From: Azolla caroliniana | Taxonomy: Eukaryota > Plantae > Polypodiophyta | Length of the DNA stretch: 64,000 nucleotides | Reading direction: 5' to 3' | Assembly (NCBI GenBank): GCA_043228905.1 | Contig: JBHGNT010000018.1 | Span: 6,448,001-6,512,000 of the forward strand | Shown here: positions 41,301 through 53,499 of the stretch, in pieces | How the letters are laid out: every line of letters starts with the position of its first letter | How positions within the stretch are numbered: position 1 is the stretch's first letter | Translations under genes and position numbers: made by a program | The notes under the pieces: model-generated | Told to the model about the DNA's origin: nothing | Seen by the model: only the letters and a program-made list of their open reading frames with translations | Databases searched by the model: none

Positions 41301-42841
41301 GTTACCACCTGACTCAAGCAACGATCCGGCGCCGAAAGGCACGACACAAGTGGTGAACTCGACGTGAAACCGGGTGGCAAGGAGATGGAGAATCAACAAG
41401 AGGCGATGAGCATAATGATGATGATGATTGAGTGGATGCAACAAAAACAGCGTGCGATGTCGAAGATGAAGTCGGCAGTAGAGCGGCTTGTGCAACAAAA
41501 GAAGCAATTCAACGGAAATGATGTGTCACGCTATCTTCATGACTACAAGGTGGAGATGATGAGACATGGGATACCGGAATGATTGCAAGTGATATCCTTC
41601 AGTCGGGTGGCCACGGATGAGCTACAAGAGAGAATCCACAAGATATGGCAACAAAACCCGACATGGGGGTCCTTTGAAGAAGGTTTATGAGAGGCATATG
41701 ACTATGAGAGATCGAAGGGACAAGATTGACGCGAGTTCGACAAATGGGTGGTATCGGAGAAGACTGACCGAAGTGCAACACAAGCATTCCTAGAGTTCGA
41801 GCATTGTTTTGCTCGACTCTCGGAGCGGGAACAACGATTAGTGGGGGTGGATAAATTCCTAATGTTCGTAAGATCAATTGTTCGGAAAGAAAGGATGAAC
41901 ATCGGGATCAAACTCGAAGATGATGACAGTCCAAATGGCCTTACCGAGGATTGGGCTGAAGTTGAAAGAGTATGTCGAAGATATGATAAAAGGAAGACGA
42001 GAATATTGTCGGCAACAACATGGCCTACAAGGAATGATCGATTAAGGATGAATGATGTAGCCGGCATGAAGGCCGAAATACAATATGATGGTACCACGGG
42101 AGAGAGTGTGGAACAAGACACCCTCTTGTCTTGTGAAAGAACCACGACCAAGGATAAGGTCGATGACTTGAGAGTGGCGAACACCACTTCAAGAAAGGAA
42201 GAAGGTTTCGGAATACAAGTATCCGAAACATCAGGTGAAAAAGGGGTAAGCATAATCGAAGCTTGCATGATCGAGGGAGATAAAGAGTGCGAGGCAGACT
42301 TGATTGAGGAGGTCGCCACGAAAGATGACATCGAATCGGAGGTGGCTATGGACGAATCAATGGCGGATGGCCGTATAAAGACTTTCCTAGTTCTAGAGAC
42401 TTCGGCAGTTGCGTTCGAAAGACAACATGAGACCGAAGAGATGGAAGGTGGCGGAGAGAAAACGAAGGTCGAAGCCGATGCATACGACGGAGAGATAGCT
42501 GAGAAGGTGGCTATGGGTGAAACGACGGAGAATGATAATACTGAGGATTCCTGCTCACTAATCCTAGAGACTTCGGCGGTTGTGTCCGAGAAGCAACATG
42601 AGAGCGGAGAGACGGGAGATGACAGTGAGGAAGGTAAAGTCAGAAGTCGGTTCGGATGGAAGATGATCCGTCCGAAATTCCGATCTAAACGAAAGTCGAA
42701 CTGGTCAAATCCGGTGAACACGAAGAAAGGAAAGTCAACCCAGACCGAAACCTGTTGTAGGCGAGGAAGGTCGTCAATGCGGAAGATCGAGAAGCATTCG
42801 ATTCTCGCTGGATACCTGCGTATGACAGTCTCTAGGTCGTT

Positions 42842-42887
<46 letters not shown>

Positions 42888-43086
42888 AAAAGACTCTTTA
42901 TTTCACAAAGCAACAATACAACAGCCCAACCTTACAAAAAGGTTACAAGGTCACTATATATAGTGACCGACTTAGGGCAACTACCCTTTACTAGGACCAA
43001 ATGGTCGAAACAAGGAGTGCGTAGAGATAGGCACAAGACGATTAGAGGGTGCTTAAGCTAAACAAGAGAAAGTAGGCAACATACAC

Positions 43087-43126
<40 letters not shown>

Positions 43127-43172
43127 TTTTTAATTCAAAGAGGGAGAGATGTTTTAAATTCAAAGAGGGTGG

Positions 43173-43227
43173 TGGTCTTAGGCAAACTAGTTTCGCTCAA
43201 TAGTGGAGCTCTTCAGTGCAAAGACCA
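43173..43227 (-). ncRNA. Type I hammerhead ribozyme (minimal, palindromic stem III)
   Basis: Minus strand: TGGTCTT T GCA CTGAAGA GCTC cactatt GAGC GAAA C TA G TT TGC CT AAGACCA. Shows the CUGANGA/GAAA core, 4-bp stem II, bipartite stem I (3+7 bp) and GUU cleavage triplet. Confidence 0.88.
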
Positions 43228-43246
43228 TTACAACAAGAGAATGTGA

Positions 43247-43254
43247 TTTATAAA
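43247..43254 (-). promoter_or_regulatory. Candidate TATA box just upstream of the hammerhead
   Basis: TTTATAAA ~20 nt 5' of ribozyme stem I on the RT sense strand. Confidence 0.4.
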
Positions 43255-43341
43255 GGGGTGGGAAGGAAGAGGGAGTGAGAGAAAAAGGAGTGGGGAGGAT
43301 TTGATTTGTGTAGTAGATGAGAGAGAATAGAATGTGGTGAT

Positions 43342-43394
<53 letters not shown>

Positions 43395-43498
43395 GTGTGT
43401 AGGAAAGTGATAGGGAATGAGAGAAGGGAAATTAGTATAATGATGATGGTGAGGGGAGAGTTTTTAATGTGATGAAAAAGGGGGATTTGGGATAATAT

Positions 43499-43700
43499 TA
43501 AGTGGGGGATGTGGGTGAATTATTTGAAAACTTAGTGTTAAGTGGGGGATTTGGGTGGATTGTTTGAAACTTTAGTCTTAAGTGGGGGATTTGGGTGGAT
43601 TGTTTGAAAATTTAGTCTTAAGTGGGGGATTTTGGTGGATTGTTTGAAAACTTAGTTTTAAGTGGGGGATTTTGGTGGATTTTTTGAAAACTTGGTCTTA
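43499..43700 (-). repeat. Five tandem 40-bp repeats; the first overlaps the RT C-terminus and stop codon
   Basis: agtgggggat recurs at 43501, 43541, 43581, 43621 and 43661; the unit encodes KTKFSKNPPKSPT*. Confidence 0.95.
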
Positions 43701-45526
43701 ACTAGGAGGGCATGTAAGGACTTAGATTTTGTCCAACATACGAAAGGGCGTGAGATGCTTGTAAGCTCGGGATCTAACATTAAGTCATTATAGAGATTTT
43801 TTAGAAAACTATGAATGCCTAGTTTTGGGGTATGTTTGGTGTATCTAAGTTTAAAGATTGTGGGGTTAAGGGAAGTAATAGTTTTGGGTTGATATAGGAG
43901 TGTTTTTCTAAGACTAAAAGGTATTTTCTTATAGCTTTTTAGTATAAAGGATGGAGGGTAACCACGGTTAACTAGTCTATTGAAAAAGAGTTTTTTCATT
44001 TGGTAGAAACCTAATGGGGTGCTTTCTCTAATAAGATATCTCTTCACTTCATTAGTGATAAAGTGTTGTTTCGTATGGGAAGGATGATCCGATGAAAAAG
44101 GCAAGTATTGGTATGAATTGAGAGGTTTTTGAAAACAATTAAATAAGAAAGATGAATTTTCGAGGTTGATCCATATGTCTAAAAAAGGTAGCCGAAAGGG
44201 GGAAGTTTGAATGGTAAGCTTGATGGAGTTATTTGTGTGTGAAGGGTAAAAGTCGAGATATTCTAAAAGTTGAGATTTGGTGCCTGTCCAGACCCCAAAT
44301 GCATCATCAATATAGCGGGTGAAGTAGAAGAGATGGGGGGGCGATGGTTGTAAGTTTTCGAGATATACTAAAAAGAGGCATGCATATACGACTGAAAAGT
44401 TGCTACCCATGGCCGTACCTTTTATTTGTTGGTAAACTACGTCATCGAAAGTGAGATAGTGATATTCTAAAATAAGGGCACTAAGGGTATAGATGAGATT
44501 TGTTTTCGAAGGGGAAAAGTGGGGGGTGATTAGACTACGTAGGGCTTGGAGTCCTAACTTAGGGGGGATACTAGGATAGAGAGATTCAACGTCAAACGTG
44601 AATAAGAAACTATTAGATGGTGGGTGTAGGTTTTCTAGTGATTGGATTAGTGTGTGAGAGTCTTTTAGATATTGTGGTTGGAGAAGGAGGATTGGTAAAA
44701 GTTGGTGGTGTAACCACTTTGATGTTTGTTCAAATAAGGAGTTATTATATGAACAAATGGGCCGGAAACCCATAGGTGTTTTGTGTAATTTAGGGAGGAA
44801 ATAGAGGTTGGATACTTGATATCCTTTTTTGGGTTTGTGGAGGATGAAATTAGCTTCAATTGGGGAAAGTGTACCTAAGTGGTTTGTTATTATGTTATTA
44901 AGGCGGTATAGTAACTCTTCCAAGGGGAAGTGGCTGACTCTCTTATAGGTGGTAGAATTTGAGAGGTGTTCTATGGCTTTGGTGTAGTATGTGTCTTTAT
45001 CTAGAACACATACTCCCATATTTTTATCGGCTGGGAGGATGATAATGTGTTTGTTGTGTTGGAGGCTTTTAAAGGCTCTAGAGAGGTGGTATGGGATTCT
45101 AGTGTTTATGGGTTTAGTGTTGTGTGCTATTTGGTTAAGGATGTGTTGGTGTTTTTCTATTATGGAGACTAGGGGTGGATATTCTGTGGGTGGCATCCAA
45201 CTAGGGTTAGGTAGTTTGAAGGGGTTGAGAGGAAGTGAAGGTGTATTTCTAAAAAAATGTTTTAGCTTGAGGGATCTCGAGAGGTGGGTGAATTCTTTTA
45301 GGATATTGTTGGGTGAGGGAGGTGGGGATGGTAGGATATACTTAAGGCCTAGGTTTAGCAATTGTGTTTCATTTTTAGTGAGGTTATGTTTAGAGAGGTT
45401 ATGGATTTTACTATGAATTACTTGTGTACTAGTAAGAGGTTTCCAGAAGTTGGTTCTAGGTTTTTTATTTCGGGATTTGGGGTGTGAAAGGAAGGGAAAT
45501 AGTTTCTGTTTTCCCCCAAACCACAT
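43658..45526 (-). CDS. Penelope-like reverse transcriptase (622 aa from first internal Met; frame open to the insertion boundary)
   Basis: IHNLS..LT..E..LLNLGLKY, PADKNMG, YFLPKLHK, RPICS, FDVESLYPSI, QIKGTAMGS, RYIDD, LPFLDI, YLPFSSDHP, NRGYP; no GIY-YIG. The track's first 7 codons come from the host LTR. Confidence 0.9.
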   Translation of the reverse strand: MWFGGKQKLFPFLSHPKSRNKKPRTNFWKPLTSTQVIHSKIHNLSKHNLTKNETQLLNLGLKYILPSPPPSPNNILKEFTHLSRSLKLKHFFRNTPSLPLNPFKLPNPSWMPPTEYPPLVSIIEKHQHILNQIAHNTKPINTRIPYHLSRAFKSLQHNKHIIILPADKNMGVCVLDKDTYYTKAIEHLSNSTTYKRVSHFPLEELLYRLNNIITNHLGTLSPIEANFILHKPKKGYQVSNLYFLPKLHKTPMGFRPICSYNNSLFEQTSKWLHHQLLPILLLQPQYLKDSHTLIQSLENLHPPSNSFLFTFDVESLYPSIPPKLGLQALRSLITPHFSPSKTNLIYTLSALILEYHYLTFDDVVYQQIKGTAMGSNFSVVYACLFLVYLENLQPSPPHLFYFTRYIDDAFGVWTGTKSQLLEYLDFYPSHTNNSIKLTIQTSPFRLPFLDIWINLENSSFLFNCFQKPLNSYQYLPFSSDHPSHTKQHFITNEVKRYLIRESTPLGFYQMKKLFFNRLVNRGYPPSFILKSYKKIPFSLRKTLLYQPKTITSLNPTIFKLRYTKHTPKLGIHSFLKNLYNDLMLDPELTSISRPFVCWTKSKSLHALLVKTKFSKNPPKSPT

Positions 45527-45835
45527 ATATGTGTCTTGGGTGGAGGGGGATCTATTAAGTAGGTAGAATAAACGTTTGCTAATTACATAAATGGCCAAAA
45601 CGGGATAGTGTGAATACGTCCATTATACACATGTATTCGACACTCCCCCGTAATGGGCGTATACATGGGTTATCTAAGATTACAGGTATAGACTTGGGTT
45701 CTCGGACATATCAGCTTTGTTCGAGTCGGCAGGGTCCGAAGGCAGAAGACCGAACTGGTCGGGTCGGAACAGTTGAAGCCGATCATTAAGGAACTGATGT
45801 CGGTTGTCGGGGACCATCCTGCTCTGTGTCCGGCT

Positions 45836-48800
45836 CTAACCGGACTGGTTTGTCGTTACGCCCATCTGATGCCGAAGAGACCGAAAGCGGTCTGCCGAAA
45901 GACACTTGGTCATTCCATCTGCGACATTGTCGGTTGTGGATATTTTCTCTAGACCGATTTTCCCTGAGATGACGCAGTCCCGAACGAAGTGATATCGAAC
46001 GTCGATATGTTTGGAGGCGTTGTGGTGAACCGGATTTTTCGACAAGGCAACAGCACCTTGACTGTCGCTGTAGACAACTGGAGCCGAGTCATGGTCGACT
46101 TGTCGAAACGTGTGCGCCAGCCGACCGAGCCACAAAGCTTCTTTTGCTGCGTCGGACGCAGCTACATATTCTGCTTCGGTCGTTGAGGTCGCTGTGCACT
46201 CCTGAAGTTTCGACTTCCACGAGATTGCTCCATTGCCGAATTTGAAGCAGTATCCGGTTGTTGATTTCCGACTGTCTATACAGCCGGCGAAGTCCGAGTC
46301 GGTGTAACCGACTACGCCTGAGGTTCGGTTCGGACCGAAAAGAATGCCATGGTCTTTTGTGCCAGCCAGATATCTGAACACATGCTTGACTGCGTTCCAA
46401 TGCGATCGGCCAGGATTGTGCATAAATCTGCTAACGACTCCTACGGCATGAGAAATATCAGGCCGTGTCGCGACCATCAGGTACATAAGGGAGCCGACTG
46501 CCGGTGCATACGGTACCGACTTCATATCTTCCCCCTCCGAACCGGATGTCGGGCAGTCTCGCTGAGAGAGCCGAAGATTCATGGGGAGCGGGGTTGAAGC
46601 AGATTTGGCTGATTGCATGTTGAAGCGTTCCAAGACACGTCCGATATAGTCGGTCTGAGACAAAAAAAGATGTCGTTTATCGCGATGCCGACTAATCTTC
46701 ATGCCAAGGATGTGTCGTGCCGGACCGAGGTCCTTCATAGCAAACTTCAACCGCAGTTGCCGAATGAGATCGGCAAGTTCGCCCGCGTGGCGTCCAGAAA
46801 TTAGCATGTCGTCCACGTAAATGATGAGGAAGATGGGTGATCCATCTTGAGCTGTGTTGGTGAAGAGACAATGGTCCTCATCGCTTTTGGAGAAGCCGAT
46901 CGATTGGATGAAGTCGTCGAACTTCTTGTACCATTGTCGGGGTGCCTGTTTGAGGCCGTATAGACTCTTCCTGAGTCGGCAGACTAGATGTTCTTGGCCA
47001 GTTGCCACGAAGCCTTTTGGCTGCTCCATATAAATTTCCTCCTCGAGATCACCATGGAGGAAGGCTGTTTTGACATCTAGCTGAATCAGCTCCAAGTTGT
47101 CGGCTGCCACTACGCCGAGAAGAAAGCGAAGGGTTGTCATTTTCACCACTGGTGAAAAAATCTCGTCGAAGTCGACGCCATATTCTTGTCGGAAGCCCTT
47201 CGCAACTAATCTGGCCTTGTACTTTGGGGTGGTCGAATCAGACGTCTCTTTTAGTCGATAAACCCACTTGCAAGGAAGAGCACGTCGGTTCCTAGGTAAT
47301 TCGACCAGATCCCAAGTCTTGTTTGCCCGAATGGAGTGCATTTCCGACTCCATCGCCAGATGCCAGGTGGCGGAATCGACAGATGTCGATGCTTCTTCGT
47401 AAGACGTCGGTTCGCCGGCGTCGGTGAAGAAAATTCCAGGAGAATACCTCTCCGGAGGTTGCGACAGTCTCTCGGATCGTCGAGGTATGATTGGACTGGT
47501 CGCATCGGGTATCGAGGTCGGATGGTCCGAAAGCGGATTGTTCTGCTGTGCCGAGTCGGAGTTGTCCGAGTCGGTAGTGTAAGGTTCAGCTACCCGTGAA
47601 GCTGACCGTGTGTTGAGAGCGGGGCCTTCTTGAAGGGTCGGCACATCGGAAAATGTTACCCTTCGGACTTCGATCGGTTTTTCGACTGATGGATTCATAG
47701 CCGACTCGTTGAACACAACGTCCGAACTTCGGACGATTTGTGTGCGTTCGGGATCCCAGAGTCGGTATCCCATTTCGCCGTCTGATCCATATCCAAGGAA
47801 AATGCATTTCCTGGACCGAGGTGCAAGTTTTCGGCGATCATCTTTCGGAATAAGGGCGTACGCCTCGCATCCGAAGATCCTCAGCTTGTCGTAATTCGGC
47901 TTACTGCCGATCCATAGTTCCTGAGGAATTTGAAGTCCTAGAGGTCTACTTGGCGACATATTTATTATGTGTACTGCCGTGAGTAGAGCCTCTGCCCAGA
48001 AGCCATCCGACAGTCGGGAGTGTTGGAGCATGGAAACTATCCGTTCTTGGATTGTCCGATTCATTCGTTCTGCAATCCCGTTTTGCTCCGGACTGTGTGG
48101 TGCCGTAAATTCACGTCGGATGCCGCGTTGTCGGCAGAATTTGACGAATTCGTCGGATTTGAACTCTCCCCCATTGTCGGTCCGAAAGCATTTCAGTTTT
48201 CGGTCGGTTTGATTTTCTACCATAGCGAGCCAATCGGAGAAGATCGAGAAGACACGATCTTTGGTGCGAATCGGATAAGCCCACACCTTTCGAGTCGAAT
48301 CGTCAATAAAACTGACGAAGTAAGAGGCACCGCCAAGAGACTGATGAGGCATTGGGCCACAGACGTCCGAGTGGACTAAATCGAGAGGTCTCGTTTCTCT
48401 TGGTGCTGATGTCGGGTGTGATGCGGCTGCTTGTTTGCCATACTGGCAATGCTCGCAGAATTGATGGTCGGAGAAGGAGAGTTTGGGGATGTATCCGGCT
48501 CTGGATAGGTGCGTGATGCCGGCCTTGCTGAGGTGTCCTAGTCTTCGGTGCCATAGTGATGACACAGGAATATCCACCAAGAACAGGTTACCCTCTCTGA
48601 GCGTAACATGTAACGGATACAGGGAGTGTATCTTGGGTCCTCTAGCAAGCAGGAGGTTCCCCCTGTGGAGTGTCCACCCTCCCGAGGAAAAACCGGCACG
48701 AATGCCGTCTTCATCTAGTTGTCCGACTGAGATCAATGGCCTTGAGAGCTCGGGTACATGTCGGACATTGTGGAGTACAAGTGTAGAGCCACCTGCAAGG

Positions 48801-49852
48801 TTGAGCTCTACTGTGCCGATTCCGATGATGTCACAGTGTTGTGAGTTGCCGACTCGAACTGAGTCGGAGTGACGGATCGTATATTGCCGAAATTGGGATC
48901 GATGAGGAGTCACGTGAAATGACGCGCCCGAATCCAAGAGCCACGTGCTCGATTCTTCAGTCGTGAGCAGAACTTCTGATCCGACTGGATTTTCGATTGA
49001 TAGTATATTCGGGTCGTCCGGTAGTACATCAGCTGAGAAGCTGACGTAATTGATCTCCTCATGCCGGCCACTCTTCTTGTTGTTCTTGTTCTTGAGTGCG
49101 CGGCAGTCGGCTTTGATGTGTCCGGGTTTCTTGCAGTAGTTGCAGATTCGGTTATCCCGTGACTGGCTCCGTCTTCGCTGATTGTTCGGCGGTCGTGAGG
49201 AATCTCTTCCTCGTATGTTCGATCGGTCTGTCGAACCTTGTACTACGTAAGCGTCGTCTGTTGAGTCTTTGGCGAAAGACTTTCTCCGAGCTGCTTCGGT
49301 CAGGATTGCGCTCGTGACTTCGGAGTATTTAACAGCCGTGGTTGACGCGTTGCACACGGTTGTGACGAAAGTTTCCCATGATGAGGGAAGGCTGCTCATG
49401 AGTATCATTGCTCTGAGTTCATCCTCGATTGCCATCCCCTGTGACGAGATTTGGGAGCTTATGCTTTCGTACTCGTTGAGGTGTGCTTGAACCGAATCGG
49501 ATTCTTTCATCCGCAAGTTGTAGAGGCGCCGGATCAGAAACATCTTTGTTGCGGCGACCTTCTTTTCGTAAGTGTCCGACAGTGTTTTCCACAGTTCAAA
49601 TGCTGTCGTACACGATTGCACCGTAAAGTATACCGATTCCGATAGGTGCATCCGAATCGTGGCGCGGACGATTCTGTCCAGCTTCTGCCACTCAATTGGT
49701 TTGTATCCTTCTGGAGGTTCTTCATTTTCGATGGGATCGATTTGCCCCTTGACTATGAGATAGTCCTGCATTTGCTCCTTCCAGAAGTTAAAGTTCGATC
49801 CATCGAACTTTCGTAGACTCATTTCTGACGAGCCGGATGTTGATGCCATCAA
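45836..49852 (-). CDS. gag-pol: Uninterrupted copia gag-pol polyprotein (1338 aa)
   Basis: CNYCKKPGHIKADC, WLLDSGAS, LWHRRLGH, VHSDVCGP, RTDNGGEF, QNGIAER, QLDVKTAFL, YVDD, STTEAEY, KHIDVRYHF. Confidence 0.97.
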   Translation of the reverse strand: MMASTSGSSEMSLRKFDGSNFNFWKEQMQDYLIVKGQIDPIENEEPPEGYKPIEWQKLDRIVRATIRMHLSESVYFTVQSCTTAFELWKTLSDTYEKKVAATKMFLIRRLYNLRMKESDSVQAHLNEYESISSQISSQGMAIEDELRAMILMSSLPSSWETFVTTVCNASTTAVKYSEVTSAILTEAARRKSFAKDSTDDAYVVQGSTDRSNIRGRDSSRPPNNQRRRSQSRDNRICNYCKKPGHIKADCRALKNKNNKKSGRHEEINYVSFSADVLPDDPNILSIENPVGSEVLLTTEESSTWLLDSGASFHVTPHRSQFRQYTIRHSDSVRVGNSQHCDIIGIGTVELNLAGGSTLVLHNVRHVPELSRPLISVGQLDEDGIRAGFSSGGWTLHRGNLLLARGPKIHSLYPLHVTLREGNLFLVDIPVSSLWHRRLGHLSKAGITHLSRAGYIPKLSFSDHQFCEHCQYGKQAAASHPTSAPRETRPLDLVHSDVCGPMPHQSLGGASYFVSFIDDSTRKVWAYPIRTKDRVFSIFSDWLAMVENQTDRKLKCFRTDNGGEFKSDEFVKFCRQRGIRREFTAPHSPEQNGIAERMNRTIQERIVSMLQHSRLSDGFWAEALLTAVHIINMSPSRPLGLQIPQELWIGSKPNYDKLRIFGCEAYALIPKDDRRKLAPRSRKCIFLGYGSDGEMGYRLWDPERTQIVRSSDVVFNESAMNPSVEKPIEVRRVTFSDVPTLQEGPALNTRSASRVAEPYTTDSDNSDSAQQNNPLSDHPTSIPDATSPIIPRRSERLSQPPERYSPGIFFTDAGEPTSYEEASTSVDSATWHLAMESEMHSIRANKTWDLVELPRNRRALPCKWVYRLKETSDSTTPKYKARLVAKGFRQEYGVDFDEIFSPVVKMTTLRFLLGVVAADNLELIQLDVKTAFLHGDLEEEIYMEQPKGFVATGQEHLVCRLRKSLYGLKQAPRQWYKKFDDFIQSIGFSKSDEDHCLFTNTAQDGSPIFLIIYVDDMLISGRHAGELADLIRQLRLKFAMKDLGPARHILGMKISRHRDKRHLFLSQTDYIGRVLERFNMQSAKSASTPLPMNLRLSQRDCPTSGSEGEDMKSVPYAPAVGSLMYLMVATRPDISHAVGVVSRFMHNPGRSHWNAVKHVFRYLAGTKDHGILFGPNRTSGVVGYTDSDFAGCIDSRKSTTGYCFKFGNGAISWKSKLQECTATSTTEAEYVAASDAAKEALWLGRLAHTFRQVDHDSAPVVYSDSQGAVALSKNPVHHNASKHIDVRYHFVRDCVISGKIGLEKISTTDNVADGMTKCLSADRFRSLRHQMGVTTNQSG

Positions 49853-50524
49853 ATTGGGTTTCGGTTGACGAAGCTCGGTTCGGAGTTGACTACGAGCCTT
49901 GTTGGAGTGCAGCCGGTTGGCTCACCCGATATCGTTCTAGTCGGATTTGAACCCGAGTCGGTTCGGCTTCGGAACTTGCTCGAATTGACTCCGGTAACTT
50001 GAGGGACAGAACCGACTGGTCTTCCCGAATGTCGCCGAGTCGGAGTGAGCCCGGTTCGCTTCGGATATATATGCCGAATACCGATTATTGAAACCGATTA
50101 TCTGGACCGATTCGGCTTCGGTTGACTGCAGCGATGAGAGAGACGGATCCGACTGATCCTCCCGAATGTCGATCAGCCAGATGAAGCACGAATTTGGGTT
50201 GTTGTCAGAGTTGCACAAGGGGATTTCACCTCGAGCGGTTACGATCACAGGGGACAGAGTACAACCTGCTGGCTTACTCCAAGCAAGGGGATCTAACGCG
50301 ATGAGGTGCAAACCTCGTTTTTGTTCTTCTTCTCTCTTTCTTCGAATGACGCGAATACTGTGCAGGCCGTGTTGAGGTGAAGAACCGAATGCTGTGCAGG
50401 CGGTGATGACGGCCGAACCTTGCTCTGATACCAGATGTTGTAGGCGAGGAAGGTCGTCAATGCGGAAGATCGAGAAGCATTCGATTCTCGCTGGATACCT
50501 GCGTATGACAGTCTCTAGGTCGTT

Positions 50525-50555
<31 letters not shown>

Positions 50556-52080
50556 CACACACACACACACAAAAGACTCTTTATTTCACAAAGCAACAAT
50601 ACAACAGCCCAACCTTACAAAAAGGTTACAAGGTCACTATATATAGTGACCGACTTAGGGCAACTACCCTTTATGCTAATTACATAAATGGCCAAAACGG
50701 GATAGTGTGAATACGTCCATTATACACATGTATTCGACAAAACCGATGGGTCGAACCCGAACCGGAAGGGGGCCGACTCAATCGAAACCAATCAACCGAG
50801 TCCGATTTGGCCGAATACGAATCCGATCGGAAGCCGATCTAGCTGAAAACTGATCAGACAAGACCGATCCGGAAAGAAGGTAATCCGACTCAACTGGAGG
50901 TCGAAGCAATCAAGACCGGTGAACACGAGGAAGACGCCAAACAGGCACACTACCACAGACGACAAGGGCCAAGCGGATTTGAAGGGTGTTACCAAGGATG
51001 AGATCTCGACAAAGGAGGGTTATAACATGAAGATTGTCAACTCTAACATGAGATTATACGACAAAGGTGAACAAAGTGGGAAGCATGGCACATGCACAAG
51101 ACAAGAAGGGTTATATGATCAAGAGGATCACAAGGAGCCATGACAACCGGCCATAGTAATGCAAAGAGAGAACAAAGAATATGGTGGATTGGATGACGAC
51201 AATGGTTCGGGTGGAAAATATTAGAGATCTAGGTACTAAAGTAAGCTTAAGATAAGGATAAACTAATGATAGATAGAAAGGAGAAAGAGAAAGAAGGGTG
51301 CCGATCCACCCGACCACCCCCGAGCGAAGGGATCGAGACGGACTCGAGCCTCGATCGGCGTCCCATACCACCGCCGTGGCGTCGAGTCGTACCTGGTGCT
51401 GGCACGCTCACTACAAGAGTTGACCCACCACAAGAGTAGAGTCTCGATGTAGTCAAAAGATGATCAAATGAGGGTAGCTAGGCCTCTTATTTATAGCGAT
51501 ACCCAAGGCCCCTAGGCAAGTTCACACTTGACCTAATGGGTTGTCTCAATCTCGAGGATTAAAAGTAATCCTCCCTTTCTTTACACTTTCGTTTAACCCT
51601 CACACTTATCCACGTGTATAGAATACTACGGTAAATTCTCACCACGGGATATTAAATGGTCATGCCCGTAACAGAAAGAATGGATGTGCTCAAAATGGAG
51701 AGACAAAGTCGTCATAACAAGAGAAACGAAGGGGATTGCGAGTAAAAGAGAAATACGAGAGCCGGCAACGGGTAACCGGGTGGAACAAGCAACAGAAAAC
51801 CGAAAACTGGACGGAGTCGACAACTGAACAGAACCGGAAACCGGGCGGAGCCGACTACCAAGCACGACCGGCGACGAAACCAACCGGGCGGAGACCGGAC
51901 GGACAAGACTAACAATCAACAAAAGCTTCGGCACATACTAGAGGATGTGCGGGTTTGGAGGGGGCAAGTGTCATAGTGTAATTCGCACACTACATGAAAA
52001 AATGCATTTCTGGTCTCTCCGGATAGGATATGGAGTACCCGGTGAGAACCGGAAGGACGAACCGGTAAGGATCGGACCTA

Positions 52081-52575
52081 GTATCGAGTTCCTGTTTCAA
52101 GTTTACGTTTTGTACAGGAACTCGATAGGCCGTATCGAGTTCCTGTTTCAAGTTTACGTTTTGTACAGGAACTCGATATGCCGTATCGAGTTCCTGTTTC
52201 AAGTTAATGTTTTGTATAGGAACTCGATATGCCGTATCGAGTTCTTGCTTAAAGTTTGTGTTTTAAACAGGAACTCGATACGGCGTATGGAATTCCTGTA
52301 TTATGTTCGTGTTTTATACAGGAACTCATTACCCTGTATAAAACAAAACTTTATACAGGAACTCATTACCCTGTATAAAACAAAACTTTATACAGGAACT
52401 CGATACGGCGTATCGAGTTCCTATTTAAAACACAAACTTTTAACAGGAACTTGATACGATGTATCGAGTTCTTGTATAAAACCTAAACTTCAAACAGAAA
52501 CTCAATACGCCGTATCGAGTTCCTATATAAAGTTTGTATTTTATACAGGAACTCAATACGGCGTATCCAGTTCTT
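52081..52575. repeat. Array of ~33-bp palindromes at ~51-bp period
   Basis: acaggaactcgata(c/t)g(g/c)cgtatcgagttcctgt separated by ~18-nt AT-rich linkers; about 8 palindromes plus half-units. Confidence 0.9.
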
Positions 52576-53499
52576 GAGTGCTAAAACATATTTACAAAAA
52601 TGTCCACAGTGTCAGAGGCCTACTTGGAGTCTTGGTGCTCGATTTTCTTTGAAGACATGGTGATCTTGTCAAAGTTTAGGCAGAGATCACGCTTTCGTGT
52701 TTCGTGCTCTGTGTGCTCTGTTTGGTTTATGTGCTCTTGTGCTTTGTGTGATTGAAATATGACGAGGTCTTCCTATTTATAGGGATTTACTTCAGTGGTT
52801 AAAGTAACCACAGACACCTTAACCAGGGTTGGCAAGCTTGAGGTTAGTTAGTTAGTAACCATAGTCACTTTAACTAGAGTTACTTATGATTGCATCAATG
52901 ATTACAAAGTCAAACTAACATATTGATGATTATTTTATAGTCAAAATAACATACAATGACTTTGAAGTTTAGGAAGGAACAATGATAGAGGTTCATGAAT
53001 GAACCAATGATTGATTACTCAAAGCAACATTTTTATGACTCTTAATTACTTTGTATTAAAGATGTGGGCATGAATGAACCAATGATTGAAAAGTCTTATA
53101 TTTAAAATGGTTGGCATGAATGAACCAATGACTGAGAAGTTCTATATTAAATATGGGTGCCATTAATTAACCAATGATTTTAACTTTAATCCAACATATA
53201 TATGGCTTTGTAATGATTGTAATTATATTTTACTTGATTTAACTTTATACAGACTAGTTTAAGTAATTATTAATATGTTGATTACAATTATTATATTAAA
53301 AATAATATCTTTATGTATTGTATTAATATATTATTAAATAATATAGATATTATATTGAGGGAGCTTCTGTTTAGAGAGGACTATATGTTTAGAGAGGAGC
53401 TTATCAGTTTTTTATGTTAGCCTAAGCACATAACTTAAAGAGCTCTATGTGGACCTTAAGCCATGAGTGAAGATTCACTGTTCTCGATTGAAGAATATT

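Follow-up and report, generated by a model that had tools for sequence, protein, structure and literature searches.

The window analysed here, a 64,000-nucleotide stretch of Azolla caroliniana DNA to which all coordinates refer, contains a Penelope-like element (PLE) that lies on the minus strand within a copia retrotransposon. This insert, the window copy, represents a 5'-truncated form of an endonuclease-less (EN-less) land-plant PLE with two open reading frames (ORFs), of the Selaginella type and the Coprina group. We consider it probable that the element's reverse transcriptase (RT) primed at a DNA break that was already present. Selaginella and conifers have been reported to carry EN-less PLEs (PMC9033089), and two-ORF EN-less PLEs of 4-6 kb are also known (PMC6431247). 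Such elements are generally confined to chromosome ends, and the insertion of the exceptions without a nuclease has been called open (PMC8557442).

The insertion site of the window copy can be read to the base. Alignment of the two copia long terminal repeats (LTRs) shows that 2,586 bp of PLE split the left LTR into 42753-42990 and 45577-45642, while the second LTR is uninterrupted and serves as the empty site. Relative to this sister LTR, no target base was gained or lost and no target-site duplication (TSD) is present; short microhomologies lie at both junctions (Table 1). The empty-site joint 42990-45577 was found in three of four sequencing runs. By our reading of the LTR layout, the PLE appears to sit in U3 of the copia 3' LTR. 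Copia replication copies U3 into both LTRs. One LTR alone carries the PLE, which therefore arrived after copia integration. For the same reason we rejected the idea that the PLE was picked up while copia was being reverse-transcribed. The first-pass annotation had described a very young insert in one LTR of a copia whose LTRs otherwise look identical. The split LTR stands, whereas the identity is not complete: with the insert excluded, the LTRs (304 bp each) differ by six mismatches, all G/C inside an AG microsatellite. The window copy is likely young, at the limited resolution that near-identity over 304 bp of LTR affords. The copia itself retains a TSD and an open frame. Neither a telomere repeat pair nor any further piece of the family of the window copy occurs in the 64-kb window. 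The young, intact copia itself interrupts a decayed gag-like frame (about 41390-42752) that belongs to another LTR element; the copia LTR is highly abundant in the sequencing runs.

The RT frame of the window copy is open from the 5' junction to a stop at 43658. Its first ATG, at 45526, would give a protein of 622 aa and is probably not the natural start. A Pfam scan of the frame gave no match and a PDB sequence search nothing significant. Foldseek with the AlphaFold model of the frame (pTM 0.77) placed TERT structures at ranks 1-12, followed by R2 at rank 13 and L1 at rank 14. The closest RT homologues are mostly 580-640 aa long, and their named sources are Cryptomeria, Selaginella, Ginkgo and Closterium. 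In a tree of 52 rows, the window RT falls inside a 34-row clade (100/98) with Selaginella P0025, Ginkgo and Cryptomeria; rows with an endonuclease (EN+) lie outside, and C-terminal EN+ PLEs form the nearest outgroup. Labelled rows for Coprina, Athena, Chlamys, Poseidon and TERT are absent from the tree. Visual comparison shows RT3 and RT4 motifs near-identical to those in the row labelled 'Selagine1' (PMC8557442, Fig. S1), which we infer to be Repbase Sm1. The window RT is best assigned, from these comparisons and with a clade that lacked labelled Coprina rows, to the land-plant Coprina-group lineage, grouped with the EN-minus proteins of Selaginella, Ginkgo and Cryptomeria. The TERT matches, ranked ahead of R2 and L1, and the position beside C-terminal EN+ PLEs bear out the first-pass call of a PLE-type RT. 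An 'Atlas' search returned generic PLE clusters, and no relatives of the window element were found in viral contigs.

Further evidence comes from 69 related loci (L001-L069). Sixty-four of these are from one assembly series and hence not independent, and their host may differ from that of the window. L001 belongs to the same family as the window copy (97.9% match over 45581-42988), and L002-L004 form a 93% sister family. The RT is under purifying selection, as there are nine synonymous changes and one nonsynonymous change against L001 and a dN/dS of about 0.2 against L002-L004. A GIY-YIG profile built from 18 relatives matched 24 of 266 stored proteins, in every case at the C-terminus. It matched none of the 38 relatives with at least 37% identity and none of 426 six-frame translations of the window and the loci (best E 0.37). 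No EN+ locus was present among the 69 fetched, and a search for longer relatives (30 matches) gave no N-terminal EN. The window ORF ends after the thumb region, as first annotated, and is thus without the C-terminal GIY-YIG of Penelope/Poseidon, Neptune, Nematis and Hydra. Together, the RT tree, the TERT-like fold and the negative GIY-YIG scan support the earlier proposal of a PLE that is active in a land plant, lacks EN and inserts internally.

Longer copies, which the first-pass annotation had proposed to scan for an upstream GIY-YIG, were found and carry none. Four loci hold full units of 4,723-6,118 bp, and one sequencing-run contig extends the window copy by 197 letters past 45581. The units run in the order TATA box, hammerhead, CT-rich untranslated region (UTR; about 200 nt), ORF1, RT and 3' repeats, and then TATA, hammerhead and tail again. 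This two-ORF layout had escaped the first-pass annotation, as had a sister family attached to telomeres (family F, below). ORF1 is about 725-900 aa long, helical with low-complexity parts, and has no Pfam match above the cut-off. Its conserved domain is predicted to form three long helices; a fold search with it gave nothing at E<=0.001 and generic helical bundles only, and a sequence search gave three close relatives only. A stretch related to this domain precedes the RT in two Closterium proteins. Sufficient upstream sequence was available for 47 RT starts. A frame in -1 relation precedes 38 of them, and an in-frame slippery heptamer is present in all 38 (A_AAA_AAC in 36), followed by a conserved hairpin that is 86% paired. 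A pseudoknot at this site was considered and is not supported. At its 5' end the window copy breaks off at a point that would lie about 55 nt downstream of the slippery site and about 8 nt beyond the 3' side of the hairpin. It lacks ORF1, the promoter and the frameshift site and therefore cannot be autonomous; 'intact RT', as the first-pass annotation put it, is accurate for the open frame and not for the gene as a whole.

The same units bear on a second proposal of that annotation, a 5'-truncated Chlamys/Naiad element that had lost an N-terminal GIY-YIG. The copy is indeed 5'-truncated, and DK in its RT is followed by a residue other than G, both of which agree with such an origin. An N-terminal GIY-YIG, CxC and IFD are diagnostic traits of Naiad/Chlamys (PMC8557442). 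However, the missing upstream part proved to be a helical, non-nuclease ORF1 with a -1 frameshift signal and without GIY-YIG, and a CxC motif is found in none of eight ORF1 sequences and nowhere ahead of DK in the RT. RT3 and RT4 are 58 aa apart, versus 60 aa in a C-terminal EN+ relative, so IFD is absent. The lack of CxC and IFD, taken with the canonical hammerhead, excludes both Naiad/Chlamys and PLE-X in the sense of PMC8557442, and we give a truncated Chlamys element practically no credence.

Several side observations concern the related loci. In the ORF1 of L004, L016, L019, L026, L029 and L005, Asn-Pro repeats use the telomere-like hexamer AACCCT above the expectation from codon use (43 of 68 versus 18 expected in L026; 9 of 12 versus 2.2 in L004), which tandem duplication alone could explain. 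A long inverted repeat lies ahead of ORF1 at the contig start in L026 (1-64) and L031 (1-64) and is possibly a MITE or an assembly feature. A homeodomain-coding frame (L004:6356-7060) lies about 700 bp from the PLE copy of L004; provided that the contig is no chimera, this copy is a neighbour of a host gene.

The 3' part of the window copy carries the signals that the first-pass annotation had named (Table 1). The 40-bp repeat array at the ORF end is present as described, and its core motif CCCCACTT recurs in some sister families. The TATA box, which precedes the hammerhead core by 36 nt, is likely the promoter of a downstream tandem unit, judging from its placement: among 50 hammerhead cores found by regular expression, a TATA is seen at -36 to -39 in 34 and at -51 to -54 in eight, and eight have none. 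Rfam gave no hammerhead match in the window, and the window hammerhead alone folds unremarkably (z -1.57). In an alignment of 21 related motifs, 96.7% of the cells pair and 8 of 10 pairs show two-sided changes. None of 500 shuffles reaches this pairing, although relatedness inflates the shuffle test, and slid controls pair at 24-40%. Stem III is a 6-nt palindrome in all 21 motifs, in five variants. The hammerhead is thus supported by covariation, and its cleavage is predicted. It fits the dimer-type ribozyme with palindromic stem III described in PLEs (PMC4209133). The same palindromic type occurs in L065 and L067-L069, distant EN-less PLEs (27% identity) from other metagenomes. Further downstream, an invariant CGCACTCC is followed by a 4-bp hairpin that covaries (two-sided changes in three of four pairs), and in full units this pair of features lies 53-57 nt upstream of the ORF1 ATG. 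The motif and hairpin are likely an RT initiation signal, to judge from the position of copy ends.

For 12 copies the 3' end could be located, and it lies about 20-50 nt beyond the CGCACTCC motif or a variant of it. Ten of these ends adjoin non-telomeric DNA (the window copy, L001, L003, L009, L030, L033, L044, L049, whose 3' endpoint is uncertain, L052 and L060), and the other two (L031 and L063) lead into perfect (CCCTAAA)n at the end of the contig. In L032, the copy is 5'-truncated and telomere repeats cap its 5' end. At least three perfect telomere units are seen in only these three of 70 sequences (L031, L032 and L063). Non-telomeric sequence is present on both flanks of 14 loci. The 3' flank of L001 is a high-depth repeat; loose ends behind the 3' end of the family (L001 3848-3851) are mixed in sequence, and among the rows listed none of seven is telomeric. 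The stretch in which RT would start, the RT-start window, also differs between families. In family F (L026, L027, L031 and L032), L026 and L027 have a 15-nt telomere match between the hairpin and the ATG. In nine loci of other families the match is 3-5 nt, and the full-length family closest to that of the window copy has none. A mainly telomeric or subtelomeric family like known Coprina, with the window copy as a rare stray and the other non-telomeric flanks as chimeras or eroded ends, would suit family F and L063, which adjoin perfect telomere repeats at contig ends. The ten non-telomeric junctions, the 14 two-sided flanks, the loose ends and the missing telomere match in the closest full-length family make such a distribution very unlikely.

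Two observations stand beside these data. In L025 (4085-4258), a degenerate telomere-like array lies inside the tail between duplicates of a stretch about 14 bp long; the related L044 lacks this array. In L027 (1-250), an inverted piece of the telomeric L063 type abuts a 5'-truncated family F copy, a join that suggests mixed arrays or template switches between families.

The junctions also bear on the source of the DNA end. A nuclease might have been borrowed in trans from an EN+ PLE, a LINE or another host source, followed by ordinary target-primed reverse transcription, and the nearest outgroup does consist of C-terminal EN+ PLEs. Against this, the window site has no TSD, exact TSD-like matches at the 14 two-flank loci are at chance level (mean 3.64 vs 3.60), and neither the 38 closest relatives nor the 69 loci include an EN+ form. 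We regard a borrowed nuclease as improbable. Alternatively, internal copies could be repair filler, that is, free cDNA or a DNA copy captured by end-joining with no priming by RT at the target. Microhomology at both ends and the lack of a TSD fit end-joining, and some loci end outside the RT-start window. DNA copying would not, however, place 12 3' ends within 20-50 nt after one motif in families that are only about 40% identical; capture of free cDNA is compatible with the clustered ends. Repair filler is unlikely overall, if a little less so than a borrowed nuclease.

Priming at a pre-existing break, the reading that we favour, can be laid out as follows. The tandem unit would be transcribed from the pseudo-LTR (pLTR), and RT would be made as an ORF1-RT fusion via -1 frameshifting. 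RT would then start internally on the RNA, some 20-50 nt past the CGCAC motif, from a chromosomal 3'-OH paired by a few bases. For the window copy, cDNA synthesis may have stalled just before the frameshift hairpin, and the cDNA would have been joined to the other DNA end through the 5 nt of microhomology. In families with a telomere match in the RT-start window the same step would take place on telomere overhangs, and otherwise at arbitrary breaks. Internal RT initiation that generates the tail has been shown in vitro for an EN+ PLE (PMC11167929), and EN-less PLEs are modelled as pairing with telomeres via a reverse-complement stretch (PMC6431247; PMC13159263).

A number of points weigh against this reading. 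One-mismatch TSD-like matches at the two-flank loci average 6.7 versus 5.5 in the null. Several 3' ends (e.g., L004, L007 and L020) lie outside the RT-start window, and others are unplaceable. Assembled from short reads of multi-copy elements, the flanks are potentially chimeric, the shared origin of most loci and their possibly different host apply here as well, and a both-sided empty site is known for the window copy only. Covariation of the slip-site hairpin is weak, with 118 of 500 shuffles reaching two pairs. The 3' junction microhomology of L001 is apparently only about 1 nt by our reading, and in PMC11167929 the reported initiation site shares no homology with the cut DNA; pairing may therefore not be needed. 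Lastly, telomeric and non-telomeric rows are interspersed on the RT tree, so the direction and number of switches between telomeric and internal insertion are not settled, and L049 ends with a telomere-like unit yet has a non-telomeric flank. Given both, the telomere patch does not strictly predict the target. It is only a tentative suggestion, and one we hold as doubtful, that a telomere-attaching lineage spread into chromosome interiors without a nuclease by losing a patch of roughly 15 nt at the RT start, the patch acting as a switch without which the element heals arbitrary breaks.

Table 1. Features of the PLE insertion and its copia host, in window coordinates.
Feature	Position	Strand	Detail or evidence
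5'-truncated EN-less PLE copy	42991..45576 (42988-45581 with microhomologies)	-	LTR alignment, L001 match, empty-site joint
ORF2 (RT) remnant: DKN motif, RT core, thumb, no GIY-YIG	43658..45576	-	
5 x 40-bp array overlapping ORF end	43498..43701	-	5.1 copies, 92% matches; family-specific 3' repeat
TATA box of pseudo-LTR	43247..43252	-	Position kept in 34/50 cores
Type I hammerhead, palindromic stem III (dimer type)	43173..43227	-	Predicted cleavage after 43185
Tail, CT-rich (5' UTR of next unit)	42991..43184	-	Same sequence precedes ORF1 ATG in L004, L019, L021
Conserved CGCACTCC motif (from 43021) and 4-bp hairpin (43006-42995)	42995..43021	-	Directly before copy ends
5' junction microhomology, 5 nt	45577..45581	-	Sister-LTR comparison
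3' junction microhomology, 3 nt	42988..42990	-	Sister-LTR comparison; sequencing contig starting at 42988
Host copia LTR retrotransposon	42753..50739	-	1361-aa frame 45836-49921, 5' LTR 50436-50739, interrupted 3' LTR, 5-bp TSD

A large imperfect palindrome elsewhere in the window (52081-52576) consists of two 51-bp tandem arrays, one inverted relative to the other.

The window element shows the features of a PLE, namely an RT nearest to TERT, a pLTR with a partial tandem layout, 5' truncation, a 3' tail and a type I hammerhead. It also shares with Coprina the lack of GIY-YIG, the DKN motif and an ORF1 with coil and disorder as in Coprina-1_Alen. A reverse-complement telomere stretch or telomere attachment is found in family F and L063 and not in the window copy or its family, and the window element is thus a variant rather than a canonical Coprina member. 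The EN-minus telomeric PLEs of Selaginella moellendorffii (Coprina group; Repbase Sm1/Sm2) and the conifer EN(-) PLEs resemble it: the RT clade (100/98) holds a Selaginella protein together with Ginkgo and Cryptomeria, EN is likewise lacking and a type I hammerhead lies in the pLTR (PMC4209133). The window family differs in its internal position and in having no repeats that match telomeres. Coprina-1_Alen, from Ascochyta lentis (PMC13159263), has two ORFs, an ORF1 with coil and disorder, an ORF2 with DKN, RT and thumb, a length of about 4.5 kb and flanking direct repeats. It differs in that all 13 fungal copies lie at chromosome ends, and the section of that paper drawn on here describes no frameshift signal. 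Athena/Terminon of rotifers (PMC8557442; PMC6431247) are EN-less with a coiled-coil ORF1 and an optional frameshift between the ORFs. Athena has 5'-truncated, telomere-capped copies, as in L032, and a reverse-complement telomere stretch 3' of the hammerhead, as in family F. However, it belongs to a rotifer clade, reaches up to 40 kb and has telomere repeats immediately after the ribozyme, whereas in the plant elements the patch lies some 200-500 nt downstream, after the second conserved motif. The plant family shows the slippery site and -1 overlap, and its hairpin is conserved without a supported pseudoknot. A parallel in insertion is PLE-X of Chara and Selaginella (PMC8557442), an EN-less plant PLE with a hammerhead and non-telomeric inserts (genome-wide or in 28S rDNA) whose mechanism has been called open. 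PLE-X lies inside Chlamys and has CxC motifs and a CxCX1-8C N-terminal domain, whereas the window element has neither CxC nor IFD; by eye, the start of PLE-X1_sMoe looks unlike ORF1. The window element thus appears to be a case independent of PLE-X. In the literature listings searched, no paper dealt with PLEs of ferns or with sister families of both telomeric and internal type; Lin et al. 2016 may already cover two ORFs or internal conifer copies.

These families represent active two-ORF PLEs with predicted frameshifting in a land plant, where annotation leaves the proteins unnamed. Closely related families (about 63% identical in RT) with and without the telomere patch at the start, together with a mapped start window and one base-exact empty site, are now available. 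With them, whether the closest relatives of telomerase prime at chromosome ends or at breaks can be tested in vitro through exchange of a short RNA segment.

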